Below are positions 43,040 through 48,496 of a DNA stretch of 50,973 nt, piece after piece. Every line of letters begins with the position of its first letter. Position 1 is the stretch's first letter. Where the stretch lies: the sequence record OR532834.1; one strand, given 5' to 3'. Position numbers and translations under genes: made by a program. The stretch is from Klebsiella phage RCIP0040. The notes below the pieces were generated by a model, which made no database searches, was not told the origin of the DNA, and saw only the letters and a program-made list of their open reading frames with translations.

Positions 43040-43123
43040 CTATCCGCAATAGCACTTTTTGGTAAAACCCGGTCAGAGGGATCGGGTATTATCACCACAT
43101 CACCAACGAGAGGAGCATCAACC
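43040..43123 (+). promoter_or_regulatory. stop-overlapping box + stem-loop/-10 + conserved leader module (representative of ~20 copies)
   Basis: CAATAGCACTTTTTGGTAAAACCCGGTCAGAGGGATCGGGTATTATCACCACATCACCAACGAGAGGAGCATCAACC-ATG. Confidence 0.55.
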
Positions 43124-43339
43124 ATGCCACACCTTAACAGAACGCTTCAACTCCGCACCTTCGCCGGATACCAGATCCCGAAGGAGTCGACGAAGGCAGT
43201 TCCAGGCCGTGAATTCGGCGTGTACTTCCACTGGCAGGGCAAATGGCGCTTTACCGCCATTCACGGCTTTTACGTCACCTGCGACGGCGTTGACATTGAC
43301 GACCACAGCGGCGGGAACCAGGTTCACAACTTCAAATAG
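43124..43339 (+). CDS. hypothetical early protein
   Basis: 71 aa; RBS GAGAGGAG; stop TAG embedded in a conserved box. Confidence 0.45.
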   Translation: MPHLNRTLQLRTFAGYQIPKESTKAVPGREFGVYFHWQGKWRFTAIHGFYVTCDGVDIDDHSGGNQVHNFK

Positions 43340-43411
43340 CACTTTTTGTTAAAACACGATCGGGGTGGCTTGCTATAGTAACCCCATCGAAACGAACAAC
43401 GGAGCAACACA

Positions 43412-43906
43412 ATGAAATCTCGCGAATACCTCAACACCCTTAATGGCCTGATTTACTGGCTGGAAGATGACGCAGTGATGATGCGCAAGCGCGAAGGCAA
43501 GATCGTGAAGAGGTCGAACATGACGGCTGAAATATTCCTAGCTATGGTCTGCAACGATACACTTCTGCTTGTCGAGGCGGAGCCAGAGCAAAAGAGCATG
43601 ACCATGAACGAATTCTCTAACTTCCTGGCTGGCATCGACAAAAGCACCACGACTGCAACCGCACAGACGGCCATCCAGGGCGGGGCCACCCACATTGCCA
43701 TCGATGGTAACGGCGACGTCTTCGCATTCAAGATGCGCCCGCGCCACTGCCTGCCGAAAGATGATGACGCAAAGGATTACCTGGGCGAATGGCTTCGCGG
43801 GTCTGAGCAGTACGGCCACATTGCGCGAACAGTCTGCTTCCTGGGCAACACTGGACGCGAGCACCGCAACTGGCGGGAACTCTGCTTCCAGATCCCACAG
43901 CAATAG
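43412..43906 (+). CDS. hypothetical early protein
   Basis: 164 aa; preceded by a box/stem-loop module; stop TAG in a box. Confidence 0.45.
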   Translation: MKSREYLNTLNGLIYWLEDDAVMMRKREGKIVKRSNMTAEIFLAMVCNDTLLLVEAEPEQKSMTMNEFSNFLAGIDKSTTTATAQTAIQGGATHIAIDGNGDVFAFKMRPRHCLPKDDDAKDYLGEWLRGSEQYGHIARTVCFLGNTGREHRNWRELCFQIPQQ

Positions 43907-43974
43907 CACTTTTTGTTAAAACGCAATCGGGGTGATGCGCTATCATTACCCCATCGAAACAGAGGAGCATAAAC

Positions 43975-44187
43975 ATGATCGGCAACCAAAACAACCCACT
44001 CAATGCAGCCTTTCACCGTCGCGCGGTAGAGCAACACTTCCACGCGCTGAAGGTGGTGTGCAACGAGATGAATCTTATGCTTGACCTGCCGTCATGGGAT
44101 GCGCAACTGGAAGATTACTATGATGGCCTGCGCGCTAAACGGGATGGCATCATTACCCGCCTGCGCCTGGCTGGTATGTTTCTATAG
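43975..44187 (+). CDS. hypothetical early protein
   Basis: 70 aa; RBS AGAGGAG. Confidence 0.4.
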   Translation: MIGNQNNPLNAAFHRRAVEQHFHALKVVCNEMNLMLDLPSWDAQLEDYYDGLRAKRDGIITRLRLAGMFL

Positions 44188-44198
44188 GAGAAAACACC

Positions 44199-44456
44199 AT
44201 GCAACAATTTAAATCTCGCGGCAAGACCTACAACCTGCCGGACACCGCTACTCACGCCGCACCTGGCGTATGCGTCGGCCTGTACTTTAAGGATGGCGGA
44301 AAGTGGTTCTTCATTGGCGACCTCGTGACGGATTGCGTGCAGCCCATGCTTTGCGGCAAACATCGCGGATTCTTCGATCATGATATCGTGGAACTGAAGC
44401 CGCAGCGTCAGCCATTCGCCTTCTGGAATAAAATCAAAGGGGCGCTGTTCAAATGA
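44199..44456 (+). CDS. hypothetical early protein
   Basis: 85 aa; RBS TAGGAGAAAA. Confidence 0.4.
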   Translation: MQQFKSRGKTYNLPDTATHAAPGVCVGLYFKDGGKWFFIGDLVTDCVQPMLCGKHRGFFDHDIVELKPQRQPFAFWNKIKGALFK

Positions 44457-44671
44457 TCGACCAGAAACTGCAAACGGTATGCTACCGCGATTCGGATGGC
44501 GATGAATTGGTCGTGTCGCCGTTCGGTGGTGGCGCTGCTGGCGTAGAGCTTATGGCGACCCACGATAGCGGTTGCTGCGTATTTGACGACCCGAAGGTAA
44601 TCCGCGATCTGGCTAATCAGTTGCTGTCCATCGCCGATGCCGTAGAGAGCGCACAAGGAGCGGAAAAATGA
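44453..44671 (+). CDS. hypothetical early protein
   Basis: 72 aa; ATGA coupling. Confidence 0.4.
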   Translation: MIDQKLQTVCYRDSDGDELVVSPFGGGAAGVELMATHDSGCCVFDDPKVIRDLANQLLSIADAVESAQGAEK

Positions 44672-46101: not shown

Positions 46102-46112
46102 GGCCTGTTATT

Positions 46113-46358
46113 ATGGAAACAGTAACAGTGATTTGCACCAATGCGAGTTATGGGCCACTTATCCCGCTGTTCACAGTCGGAAAGGAGTATCAAGCCAGGT
46201 TCGGCCCCGGCATGGATGAAGTCTGGATTTTGCAGGACGACAAGAAAACAACGGAGTTGGGCGAAAACTGGTTAGCGTGCCGCATGCCGGATGAGAAGAT
46301 CGCTATGTTTCTTAATCGACCATATGAAAACAACGTTTTATTTGAGGTGAAACTATGA
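46113..46358 (+). CDS. hypothetical early protein
   Basis: Start re-called at METVTV...; 81 aa. Confidence 0.3.
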   Translation: METVTVICTNASYGPLIPLFTVGKEYQARFGPGMDEVWILQDDKKTTELGENWLACRMPDEKIAMFLNRPYENNVLFEVKL

Positions 46359-46615
46359 GCAAGAAAATGATTGCACTGTATTGGGTTCTTTTCCTGGGTG
46401 GCCTTGTTGTCGCCAAAGAAGATGGCTGGCAAATGATTGGAATGATGATGGTTATCATTGGGGTAAGCCGCCTCTCTGAGGTTAACGGCTTCCGCCGTGG
46501 TCGCCGGGCCGCATTCACTGGCGACAAAGAATAGCACTTTTTGTTAAACCTGCCGTAACGTCATTTGGTAAAGTGGCGTTACTGAAGCGAAACAAACCAA
46601 TCAGGAGTTAACGCA

Positions 46616-46834
46616 ATGAATGAACATTTAATCGAACTGCTGGAAGAGCTAAACACTTACGGCCAGGCATTTATAGAACTTGAAAGCGGCGCTGTTATCT
46701 CTGCTGAGGTTGATGATTGTGGCGGCTGCATAGTATTTGAGCTAGCTCCAGAATCTGAAGGCATTTATGATCGCATTGGTTTTCGCGATGTTGCAAATTT
46801 ACTCTCTCACAATTCAATCAAGGAAATCCGCTAA
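46616..46834 (+). CDS. hypothetical early protein
   Basis: 72 aa; RBS CAGGAG. Confidence 0.4.
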   Translation: MNEHLIELLEELNTYGQAFIELESGAVISAEVDDCGGCIVFELAPESEGIYDRIGFRDVANLLSHNSIKEIR

Positions 46835-47322
46835 TGAAAACCGTAAAACTGATGGTGGCAAATGCAACACAAGAAAAAGATCGCAAATACGTTGGTGAAA
46901 CTTTTAGCGCAATTAAGGCCTGGCCTTTCAGTGGTAACGATCATGAAATTACAACAGGAAGCCTAAAGGGATACGTAGTCAACCCGATCGATATTGACGA
47001 AGATCTGACAATTCGCGTTGGTTCTGGCCCGGATGACATTTTATTCCACCTTCGCAAAGTATCGAAGGCGTCGCCGCGCAAGTTGCTGGTTCGTGCGCTA
47101 AAACTTCAGGCGCGCGATCGTGGTTGGACTAACTCATATATACGCAAGTTTGGCGAGTTCTCTGGTGTCGGAGATTGGGCGAGAGCTTGGGCTAACTGGT
47201 ACTTCGATAAAGACGGGAAATTTTCCGCAACTTATATGGATGGATGGCACGGAACCGATCATGACCCGGCTAGCGGGTACGAATGGCAAGAATTTATCGA
47301 GTTTGAGTTTGATGCGTTCTAA
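46834..47322 (+). CDS. hypothetical early protein
   Basis: 162 aa; ATGA coupling; stop followed by a box. Confidence 0.4.
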   Translation: MKTVKLMVANATQEKDRKYVGETFSAIKAWPFSGNDHEITTGSLKGYVVNPIDIDEDLTIRVGSGPDDILFHLRKVSKASPRKLLVRALKLQARDRGWTNSYIRKFGEFSGVGDWARAWANWYFDKDGKFSATYMDGWHGTDHDPASGYEWQEFIEFEFDAF

Positions 47323-47394
47323 TAGCACGAATTGCTAAAACCGCCGTCCGGGGATGGTGCATACTATCCCCACACTAACCAAAGAGGAAAAATC

Positions 47395-48147
47395 ATGAGC
47401 ACCTACAAATTCATCCTGACCCCGAACGCCGATTCTCCCGCTGGCGTGGGCGCGAAATTCACCAAAGGCAAGCGCTATGAGGCCGAGCCTTTCACCAAAT
47501 ACACCGGGGATTCACTGTACAAAATCACCGATGACGAAGGCAACATGTACGCGGTCAACCCGCGCAACTCGCACTACATCGGCGGCGGTCAGTTCAGCAT
47601 CGAGTTGCAAATCAACAACTGTTTCGCTGGTGGCGAACTCTCCTTCGGCGGGTTAGTGGGCGGCGCGATGCAATATCCAATCCACACTTCGGCGTCAATG
47701 TTCGGCGGCATCACCTCAACTGAGTCGCCCCTGTTCTTTGCCGACCTGAAGGCCCACGAACGCGATAAAGATCAGGATCTGGAAGCCCTGGTCGACCGCT
47801 TGCTGAACATGTTCTGGCGGGATGAGTCGCGGGGCGTTGAACGTGGATTTAAGATCGGCGCTGAAAAATCCGCGCACTTCAAAGAGGGCGTGAAGTCGGC
47901 AAGTGATGCAGTTGCAGCCCTTGGCATGCTGTCACGGTCGATGATCGTGAAACCGGACGGCGCGAAAGAAGCCTCGCTCGCTGACCGGGTTAAAGAGCTT
48001 GAGTCAGAGCTTAACGCCGCCCACAAAACGATCGAGAAAATCCGTGAAGCCATGCGCACGCCGGAAGGTGATGACGCGCAGACCCATGCGAAAGTTCTCC
48101 GCCAGATGGCTGACACCCTGGTTAGTTTGTGGCGCGACGGCAAATAG
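47395..48147 (+). CDS. hypothetical early protein
   Basis: Start re-called at MSTYKF... after AAGAGGAAAAA; 250 aa; stop TAG in a box. Confidence 0.45.
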   Translation: MSTYKFILTPNADSPAGVGAKFTKGKRYEAEPFTKYTGDSLYKITDDEGNMYAVNPRNSHYIGGGQFSIELQINNCFAGGELSFGGLVGGAMQYPIHTSASMFGGITSTESPLFFADLKAHERDKDQDLEALVDRLLNMFWRDESRGVERGFKIGAEKSAHFKEGVKSASDAVAALGMLSRSMIVKPDGAKEASLADRVKELESELNAAHKTIEKIREAMRTPEGDDAQTHAKVLRQMADTLVSLWRDGK

Positions 48148-48223
48148 CACTTTTTGCCAAAACTTCCGCAAGGCCATTTGATATAGTGGCCTTATTGAAG
48201 CGAACCAATCAGGAGCTAAACAA

Positions 48224-48496
48224 ATGAGCATTCCGTATCCGACCAAAGACAAATCATTCCTGGGCCTGGCCGTTGTTGAGATTGTCAACCCGGATGTGAC
48301 CAACTCCCCGGATGAGCCTACCCTTGCACAGTGGGCAGGATTCAAAGCAGGAGAACGACTGACCGTCGAATGCTATAGCGACGGCGAGAAGTGGGCGCAG
48401 GTGGGGCGCTATTACCACACCGAAGAATTTGGCCAGGTGCTCCCTACCGACTGGTTCGAACTTAACGAAGGCGAATATAAGGTGATCGAAGAATGA
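48224..48496 (+). CDS. hypothetical early protein
   Basis: 90 aa; RBS CAGGAG. Confidence 0.4.
   Translation: MSIPYPTKDKSFLGLAVVEIVNPDVTNSPDEPTLAQWAGFKAGERLTVECYSDGEKWAQVGRYYHTEEFGQVLPTDWFELNEGEYKVIEE

Follow-up and report, generated by a model that had tools for sequence, protein, structure and literature searches.

Klebsiella phage RCIP0040 (sequence record OR532834.1) is a Webervirus, a T1-like Klebsiella phage of the Drexlerviridae, and the subject of this analysis is a family of intergenic modules of ~75 bases that recur among its early and middle genes, each combining a conserved 21-nucleotide (nt) box, an inverted repeat, a -10-like hexamer and an A/C-rich leader. The window, by which we mean the entire stretch of 50,973 nucleotides analysed here (G+C content, 50.6%), contains 15 clear modules and two degenerate copies, distributed over both strands. 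Eight of the modules fall in the range 43040-48225, to which a preceding sequence-only reading had drawn attention, with the first base of the box (A1) at 43049, 43336, 43903, 45061, 45661, 46531, 47322 and 48144. All eight positions listed by that reading do carry a module, whereas its count of at least nine such spacers in this range has to be lowered to eight. These modules are listed here with the folding free energy (dG, in kcal/mol), its z value and the weight-matrix score in bits:

43048..43126, plus strand: T-type box with TTGGTA, spacer-class hairpin CCCGGTC/GATCGGG, -10 TATTAT, A/C-rich leader, Shine-Dalgarno (SD) sequence and ATG at 43124 (dG -12.7, z -2.6, 46.4 bits)
43335..43414, plus strand: T-type box, GGGGT..ACCCC stem over TGcTATAGT, leader ATCGAAAC, ATG at 43412 (dG -15.6, z -3.4, 54.6 bits)
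43902..43977, plus strand: T-type box, GGGGTGATG..CATTACCCC stem over TATCAT, ATG at 43975 (dG -14.2, z -3.5, 56.0 bits)
45060..45137, plus strand: G-type box with the perfect dyad TAGCAcgaatTGCTA, GGGGTA..TACCCC stem over TGgTATAGT, ATG at 45135 (a weak fold, dG -11.4, z -0.8; 57.3 bits)
45660..45735, plus strand: T-type box, spacer-class hairpin GCCCGGTC/GATCGGGC, -10 CATAAT, ATG at 45733 (dG -13.7, z -3.5, 40.7 bits)
46530..46618, plus strand: T-type box, 12-bp stem GTAACGTCATTT/AAGTGGCGTTAC over TGgTAAAGT, ATG at 46616 (dG -15.4, z -3.0, 53.3 bits)
47321..47397, plus strand: G-type box after an in-frame TAA-TAG, GGGGATGGT..ACTATCCCC stem over CATACT, ATG at 47395 (dG -14.9, z -2.2, 43.0 bits)
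48143..48226, plus strand: T-type box with TTGCCA, AAGGCCATT..AGTGGCCTT stem over TGaTATAGT, ATG at 48224 (dG -16.4, z -3.9, 59.1 bits)

Distribution of the modules and their overlap with stop codons

Outside this range, box position A1 lies at 29223 and 30544 on the plus strand and at 37805, 39378, 40258, 40601 and 41641 on the minus strand, and the degenerate copies are found at 24836 (minus) and 26708 (plus):

29222..29303, plus strand: module with a GNRA (GCGA) spacer hairpin, -10 TAATAT and ATG at 29301 (49.5 bits)
30543..30620, plus strand: module with the variant box ACAGCAC, a spacer hairpin, -10 TATTAT and ATG at 30618 (37.2 bits)
37727..37806, minus strand: G-type module, spacer hairpin ACCCGC/GCGGGT, -10 TATAGT (z -3.1, 37.1 bits)
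39300..39379, minus strand: G-type module, weak stem (z -0.8), -10 CATACT (43.9 bits)
40181..40259, minus strand: module with the variant box TAAGCAC, in which the stop is TAA, a GNRA-type spacer hairpin (dG -16.3) and -10 TATCAT (31.4 bits)
40517..40602, minus strand: T-type module, spacer hairpin followed by TTTTG, the sole terminator-like score, -10 TATTAT (52.2 bits)
41565..41642, minus strand: A-type module lacking TTG, no stable hairpin (z +0.8), -10 TATAGT (26.2 bits)
24758..24837, minus strand: degenerate member with the left box half only, -10 TATACT one base off and a typical leader, under the 12-bit threshold
26707..26788, plus strand: degenerate box ACAGCAC-TTTTG-TTAAAC that heads the helicase promoter, within the leader of the divergent regulator gene

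The copies at 37805, 39378, 40258, 40601 and 41641 on the minus strand and those from 43049 to 48144 on the plus strand form a divergent block; the plus-strand series stops at 48144, and the gap at 49068-49138 contains no box. For the motif AATAGCAC, the window has 17 occurrences where chance would give 1.3, a count of 17 being reached in none of 100 shuffles, and the 19-mer box with at most three mismatches is found 8 times against 0 expected. A weight matrix trained exclusively on the modules of phages T1 and TLS (threshold, 12 bits; background, -60 +/- 14) recovers the 15 window modules at 26-59 bits with zero false hits.

Of the gene junctions between 43040 and 48225, about 17 in number, only 8 bear a module, so that the claim that such an element stands between nearly every early gene goes too far; the remaining junctions are those of overlapping or abutting genes, and the modules therefore delimit units of 1-5 genes. 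Related phage genomes are abundant (443 phage records, mostly of Klebsiella weberviruses, match the region 43000-48300, the best being RCIP0056 at 94.5%), and the conservation of the box in relatives on which the sequence-only reading had staked its proposal is indeed found, T1 and TLS and the webervirus pool showing the same module layout as the window. For quantitative comparison, the window was combined with T1 and TLS, with six webervirus regions and with IMG/VR contigs retrieved through the box pattern; this pool yields 491 ATAGCAC sites and, from these, 229 non-redundant modules, to which the frequencies below refer unless another sample is given. What the sequences show directly is the architecture of the modules, its fixed geometry, the covariation and strand asymmetry described below, and conservation across genera of T1-like phages.

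The overlap of the box with the end of the preceding gene is a general feature. Among the 152 modules with one clear upstream reading frame, the upstream gene stops at the TAG of the box in 104 (68%) and within or directly against the box in 144 (95%), the stop being this TAG, a TAA fused to position 1 or the TAA in TTGnTAAAA; variant boxes without TAG often retain a nearby TAA, as at 40258. The proposal that the TAG of the box is the upstream stop codon holds for seven of the eight modules at 43040-48225, whereas at 47322 an in-frame TAA comes first and this TAG is the second stop of the TAA-TAG pair. In the gene that precedes module 43049 (42747-43052), an in-frame TAA (42924-42926) stands at the position where the PWKp17 orthologue has TCA (Ser), the remainder of the 101-codon frame being conserved; this is a nonsense mutation or pseudogene, unless it is a sequencing error.

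The box and the -10 element

The box itself is not new. The 2024 reannotation of phage TLS describes a 21-nt direct repeat, aaATAGCACnnnTTGnTAAAA, that is identical with the box and is present in 18 intergenic copies, co-oriented with transcription and about 76 nt before start codons, with A, T and G subtypes and 'similar repeats' in T1, Rtp and Rogue1. The sigma70-like promoters identified in that study number only three and are listed separately from the repeats, which the authors suggested could be stoperators, enhancer sites or UP elements and whose function they named an open question (PMC11447400). The window modules match this family in consensus (aaATAGCACnnnTTGnTAAAA), intergenic location and co-orientation with transcription, and the agreement extends to the subtypes, to the number of copies (about 18 per genome) and to the distance from the start codon (72-85 in the window; median start position 77 in the 229 modules). 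The TLS study covers no Klebsiella weberviruses and does not report the fixed-distance -10, the missing -35, the overlap with stop codons, the sense-strand hairpin or the conserved leader (PMC11447400). The genome papers on Rogue1 and AHP24, in which standard promoter searches only were used, do not mention the repeat. On the question of formal description for this phage group, which the sequence-only reading had left open, the box is accordingly published, whereas the composite (a putative box-dependent extended -10 promoter, a read-through hairpin and a built-in stop codon) appears to be new.

The core of the box is a dyad, TAGCA-N5-TG(C/T)TA, at positions 2-16 with its centre at position 9. 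Its pairs are complementary in 92-97% of the modules, positions 4/14 in only 60%, and the sole freely variable positions are 8-10, at the centre of the dyad, where the triplet is TTT in 102 modules, GAA in 88 and AAA in 11. T11, T12 and G13 are conserved in 95-97%, and T15, A16, A17 and A18 in 92-98%. In the 41 modules ascertained without the left half of the box, that half is exactly ATAGCAC in 34 and one base different in the others. A host regulon with the same box was considered and rejected: when 185,579 bacterial genomes were searched for the exact 21-mer, the matches proved to be due to chance or to lie in coding sequence, had the wrong middle triplets and lacked a -10, the lone exception being one mislabelled T1-like phage contig. 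This contig, NZ_VSMK01000220.1 (labelled Nitratidesulfovibrio liaohensis), carries two complete T1-type modules, is as large as a T1-like genome (46,669 bp) and is probably phage DNA inside a bacterial assembly.

The second constant of the module is a -10-like hexamer at offset 38, found at 276 of the 491 ATAGCAC sites against no more than 21 at any other tested offset; offset 38 is also the best one in the window, in T1 and in TLS when each is taken separately. Of 284 non-redundant sites with the full box, 207 have the -10 in place and 25 more have it shifted or in a loose form, and nearly all exceptions are chance hits in unrelated contigs. The hexamer is most commonly TATAGT, CATAAT or TATTAT; G37, which corresponds to position -14, is present in 87% of the modules, and C50 (76%) and A51 (88%), seven bases past the hexamer, provide a typical -1/+1 context. 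The module thereby fits the description of an extended -10 element (TGn followed by a TAnnnT hexamer), with the full TGn in 45% of the copies. The A/C-rich leader (49% A, 26% C) and the ribosome-binding site that follows are as the sequence-only reading had described them.

What is missing is a -35. At spacings of 16-18 bp, 222 of the 229 modules match the -35 consensus at three or fewer of six positions, which disposes of a -35 at normal sigma70 spacing, and a generic sigma70 scan of the window detected zero modules. The TTGnTA inside the box lies 22 bp from the -10, too far for a -35; an alternative -10 located 17 bp past TTGnTA was rejected given that the consensus there is ATnTGn, which is not -10-like, and a sigma32-type reading of CCCCAT was discarded, from a reading of the sequence, on account of the unsuitable spacing to any TTGAAA-like element. 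With the box in place of the -35, these putative promoters would be missed by searches for TTGACA-N17-TATAAT, and the repeats suggest themselves as marks of the promoters that are missing from the TLS annotation, where only three were found. Thus, the host-sigma70 promoter of the sequence-only reading stands as far as the -10 at a single fixed offset and the conserved G-14, C-1 and A+1 are concerned, whereas a standard -35 is absent. Two sites elsewhere in the window differ in layout. In the last long gap before the terminase genes, at 49810, there is a sigma70-type promoter of the ordinary kind, TTGACG-17-TATCGT, with the hairpin GTCTCGCCCCACTTCGGGGC after it (49810-49895) and no box; at 13580-13640, on the plus strand, ATAGCAC is directly followed by a strong terminator-like hairpin, AGCGCCC/GGGTGCT, with a run of 8 T and then by TATGAT, an arrangement that resembles a terminator-promoter pair of the late region, without relation to the modules.

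What, then, does the box do in place of a -35? One answer, which we consider rather unlikely, is that it is contacted directly by RNA polymerase, as an UP-like or displaced -35-like element, in which case the modules would be constitutive early promoters for the host polymerase and would need no phage protein. TTGnTA does match TTGACA at 4-5 of six positions in 212 of the 229 modules, the A/T-rich box spans -50 to -31, an extended -10 with G-14 can function without a -35, and the UP-element idea was raised by the TLS authors themselves (PMC11447400). Yet the 22-bp spacer is beyond the working range of sigma region 4, the full TGn is absent from 55% of the modules, and at least 15 near-invariant positions across genera are far above the normal constraint imposed by RNA polymerase. 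The box is also unlike the UP consensus, and a dyad whose centre varies is more in keeping with a dimeric protein. If A51 is the start, as predicted, this dyad has its centre at about -42. Class II activators have sites centred at -41.5/-42, lambda cI at PRM and CRP/FNR being examples.

The hairpin and the mosaicism of the modules

An uninterrupted stem of at least 7 bp is present in 81% of the modules against 16% of shuffled ones, in one of two registers: across the -10 (i+j = 77-80, 108 modules) or inside the spacer (i+j = 58-63, about 60 modules). The arms vary between copies yet remain complementary, with many two-sided changes; fully paired modules number 54 with their own arm against 7.3 with permuted arms in register 77, and 26 against 3.3 in register 61. 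On folding, 11 of 16 window modules reach dG values of -12.7 to -16.4 kcal/mol (z -2.0 to -3.9), so that the stem-loop announced by the sequence-only reading is real and covarying, although its GGGG..CCCC form applies to only four of the eight modules in the range that was singled out: two others (46531 and 48144) have different stems across the -10, and in the remaining two (43049 and 45661) the stem is upstream of the -10. Rfam 15 yielded no hit at gathering score anywhere in the window, nor any with E <= 1 between 42900 and 48300.

The stem is selected on one strand. Half of the loops in the spacer class are tetraloops, of which 22 of 36 are GNRA or UNCG; a reading of the loop list, which was not separately computed, indicates that none of these loops would be GNRA on the opposite strand. 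Internal non-Watson-Crick positions are G·T in 78 cases and A·C in 10 (p = 3e-14), with balanced base composition. Taken together, covariation, GNRA loops and the excess of G·T over A·C show that the stem folds on the sense strand, and because it lies 5' of the predicted start, it would be present only in read-through RNA from the preceding unit. A hairpin that acts on the transcript of its own module is at odds with this sense-strand selection and with this position. One could also think of the repeats as DNA structures, namely cruciforms or single-strand promoter hairpins that affect promoter opening, for which the location of the -10 in the loop in about half of the modules, the precedent of the hairpin promoters of phage N4, and the helicase-promoter modules, which keep inverted repeats without upstream co-directional transcription, could be adduced. 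A cruciform, however, requires both strands to pair, whereas the 78:10 ratio indicates that only the sense strand was selected to do so; it is on the sense strand that the GNRA/UNCG loops are enriched; and the stem is wholly upstream of the -10 in 62 of the 229 modules by register, or in 72 by the minimum free energy (MFE) fold. We find such a DNA-level function quite improbable.

As to termination, a few family members in T1 and TLS do carry a terminator annotation. Nevertheless, an intrinsic (Rho-independent) terminator was rejected as the general reading: most stems lack a U-tract, the 8 nt past the stem containing on average 1.3 T where the stem crosses the -10 and 3.1 T where it lies in the spacer, and a single window module, 40601 on the minus strand, has a terminator-like score. 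The absence of the U-tract makes the terminator function doubtful for most copies, and we favour a function as stabiliser or insulator of the 3' end, genuine termination being confined to a minority of copies.

The regular position of the modules at gene boundaries led the sequence-only reading to liken these to the promoter early stem-loops (PeSLs) of T4-like phages and to envisage a role in the exchange of small genes. PeSLs consist of a sigma70 promoter with consensus -35 and -10 and a stem-loop, and extend from the stop codon to the ATG; the stem has been shown to terminate transcription, and recombination between PeSLs and the formation of mini-circles have been demonstrated experimentally (PMC2839356, PMC4122927). 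The likeness in architecture is considerable: both combine a host-type promoter with a G-run/C-run stem-loop, placed upstream of the -10 or over it, both stretch between the upstream stop codon and the downstream SD or ATG, and both are concentrated among small genes of unknown function, as conserved islands between variable genes. The differences are no less clear. The sequences are unrelated and come from another phage family, the T1-like modules have an invariant 20-bp box where PeSLs have a -35 in addition to the -10, and most of their stems have no U-tract. The resemblance thus stands for the position of the stem and the stop-to-ATG span, and fails for sequence, promoter type and demonstrated recombination.

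Could the modules nevertheless be recombination cassettes whose main role is to offer ~75 bp of homology for RecE/RecT-type exchange, insertion or deletion, the promoter and the hairpin merely traveling along? Several observations are of the kind expected. When the window was compared with 18 related loci, 11 of 11 breakpoint clusters at module junctions coincided with an edge of the module (positions -9 to +6 or 71 to 90), the interior being free of them; two relatives have an additional gene of ~190 bp whose insertion point is exactly the 5' edge of box 43336; module 46531 and box 47322 flank a stretch in which two genes are replaced; and genes are cut back at their ends to the box's stop codon. 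Module alleles are, moreover, not tied to particular genes: over positions 21-58, window module 48144 shares 100% identity with T1 3535 and 92% with TLS 5136, the downstream proteins being unrelated, whereas for homologous downstream genes module similarity is at background level only, and the same hairpin core is found with both TTT and GAA boxes. On the other side, breakpoints number 7.5 per kb at module junctions compared to 11.2 per kb at junctions without a module and 1.3 per kb within genes, and they hit 8 of 13 module junctions and 12 of 25 others, in what is a small sample. In this sample, mosaicism therefore appears to follow gene boundaries generally, with no preference for modules over ordinary junctions of the kind that characterises PeSLs, and exchange mediated by the modules, as the sequence-only reading had it, does not follow from the breakpoints. 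Edge breakpoints and allele uncoupling fit recombination within modules and also fit strong selection on modules while the genes are replaced. We regard recombination as the main function as possible, albeit doubtful.

Two other ideas were rejected, namely that the module subtype marks the family of the downstream gene (subtype and gene are uncoupled), and that the module is a mobile element akin to miniature inverted-repeat transposable elements (MITEs), given that its orientation is always that of transcription and that neither terminal inverted repeats nor target duplications are evident on reading of the module sequences. In phage Domnhall, positions 8408-10901 contain about 2.5 kb of extra DNA compared to the window, with second copies of window 41196-41368, 41565-42033 and 42734-43045, some on inverted genes; this looks like a duplication of the divergent promoter region.

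The candidate regulator and the function of the module

If the box is bound by a phage protein, the most conspicuous candidate is encoded next to a box:

26295..26696, minus strand: candidate box-binding protein, a 133-amino-acid Cro/YdaS-type helix-turn-helix (HTH) regulator, phrog_2856

This open reading frame is annotated as a transcriptional regulator, and its assignment to the Cro/YdaS-type HTH proteins comes from marginal Pfam and PDB matches only. It is 54-55% identical to T1 gp56 and TLS gp57, across three genera, and all 80 loci at which homologues were found are T1-like (~50-kb contigs). In 58 of 58 distinct upstream regions, a box is located 10-14 nt from the start codon of the regulator, inside its leader, where it heads the divergent helicase promoter. 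The regulator also has a canonical promoter of its own, TTGTCA-16-TATAAT, at about 26772-26745 (minus strand) in the window and known as P57 in TLS, and where such a promoter is recognisable, its -10 overlaps the helicase -10 on the opposite strand. This is the layout of an autoregulated operator, from which we infer that the regulator is a candidate for binding the box. In the window, the box of the helicase promoter (26708-26725) has a run of four T compared to five in the closest relatives, among these one in which the regulator is 100% identical, and the -10 is shifted by one base accordingly; either 1 nt has genuinely been deleted or the homopolymer was misread.

In this arrangement, the protein could activate or repress. 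Should it repress, the boxes would be stoperator-like sites or shut-off operators through which a phage protein silences the early units at a later stage of infection; like L5 stoperators, the sites have an orientation and lie between genes, as the TLS authors suggested (PMC11447400), the box in the leader of the regulator gene is in a repressive position, and the promoters with TGn look strong enough to fire unaided. However, L5-type stoperators are scattered repressor sites independent of promoters, whereas the T1-like box is nearly always tied to a -10 at 22 bp. Moreover, T1-like phages are virulent, and a centre near -42 is the classic activating position. We therefore hold repression to be an unlikely alternative, which differs from the explanation we prefer only in the sign of regulation.

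That explanation, in which we have moderate confidence, is that the module is a compact intercistronic cassette that combines a read-through hairpin with a box-dependent extended -10 promoter, with the Cro-like regulator as the candidate protein possibly reading the box. The 21-nt box, which usually supplies the stop codon of the preceding gene, would place a dyad about 42 bp upstream of the predicted start. The promoter would be of the extended -10 type, used by the host sigma70 RNA polymerase, with no -35 at working distance; the box would take the place of the -35/UP region, most likely as a protein binding site, for which the conserved, autoregulated Cro-like regulator is the best candidate. 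The sense-strand hairpin, located upstream of the module's own start, would form only in read-through RNA of the preceding unit and would serve as a 3'-end element, which in the few copies with a U-rich tail would attenuate or terminate transcription and in the majority would be a stabiliser or insulator; overlaying it on the promoter would save space. Translation of the next unit would then proceed from a short, unstructured A/C-rich leader with a ribosome-binding site. That the promoter is active and starts at A51, that the hairpin has a role in read-through RNA and that a protein binds the box is in each case inferred from sequence.

Several facts sit uneasily with this proposal. No mapped start sites or transcriptomes for any T1-like phage were found in the searchable literature, so that promoter activity and the A51 start are predictions. 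It is position and a shared taxonomic range only that tie the Cro-like protein to the box, and the box is asymmetric (position 14 is 60% complementary, and the conserved TAAAA tail is outside the dyad), which is unusual for a simple symmetric operator; the existence of two discrete subtypes, TTT and GAA, is left unexplained by the cassette model as well. As for the hairpin, 5 of 16 window modules show weak folds without a convincing stem, and the modules at the helicase promoter have no co-directional upstream gene, so that read-through RNA fails to explain their inverted repeat, which T1-type genomes still have around the -10. Finally, degenerate boxes without a -10 abut the start codons of terS and of tail-fibre genes in T1 and TLS.

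These degenerate boxes, T1 8362 and 25021 and TLS 24908, are located directly before the starts of small terminase and tail-fibre genes, after annotated terminators, and on account of this position, the box may have a second, promoter-independent role. In T1 (15086, minus strand) and TLS (DR7, 15044-15024), a minus-strand box is also found in the late region before the major capsid gene. The window contains one full box without a -10:

5470..5490, minus strand: orphan G-type box, complete and antisense to the surrounding sequence, with a terminator-like hairpin, GGGGCCGAAGCCCC, and a T-run after it

Two known modes of regulation bear comparison. With class II activator-dependent promoters, the modules share the dyad centred about -42 from the predicted start, the missing -35 and, at one such site, an adjacent gene for a Cro/cI-type HTH protein in an autoregulatory layout, a comparison made from sequence alone; the differences are that the site here is asymmetric, with a TAAAA tail, and that about 16 copies per genome make for a global promoter class, not a single switch. 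T4 middle promoters have a MotA box and a -10 but no -35, the MotA box being centred at about -30. Like these, the modules constitute a phage-wide class with a good -10 and a conserved upstream box in place of the -35, and the right box half, TTGCTAAA, loosely resembles the MotA-box core TGCTT; unlike the MotA box, the T1-like box is at about -42, and we know of no MotA or AsiA homologues in T1-like phages.

We venture, as a tentative extension, that most early and middle genes of these phages might be served by a private promoter class, the -42 dyad being the operator of a Cro-like global class II-type activator or switch for about 16 -35-less promoters per genome, each combined with an insulating RNA hairpin into a portable cassette. 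If true, this would be a one-factor analogue of the MotA middle-promoter system of T4 in a classic T phage, and one whose transcription programme has never been worked out. The composite reading of the module gives, in any case, a concrete and testable answer to the open question on the function of the TLS repeat. The convergence with the PeSLs of T4 suggests that the fusion of a read-through hairpin to a promoter is a general answer to the dense packing of early regions in phages. As weberviruses find wide use as candidates for Klebsiella therapy, a portable cassette of ~75 nt, together with a map of transcription units, would aid the annotation and engineering of these phages.

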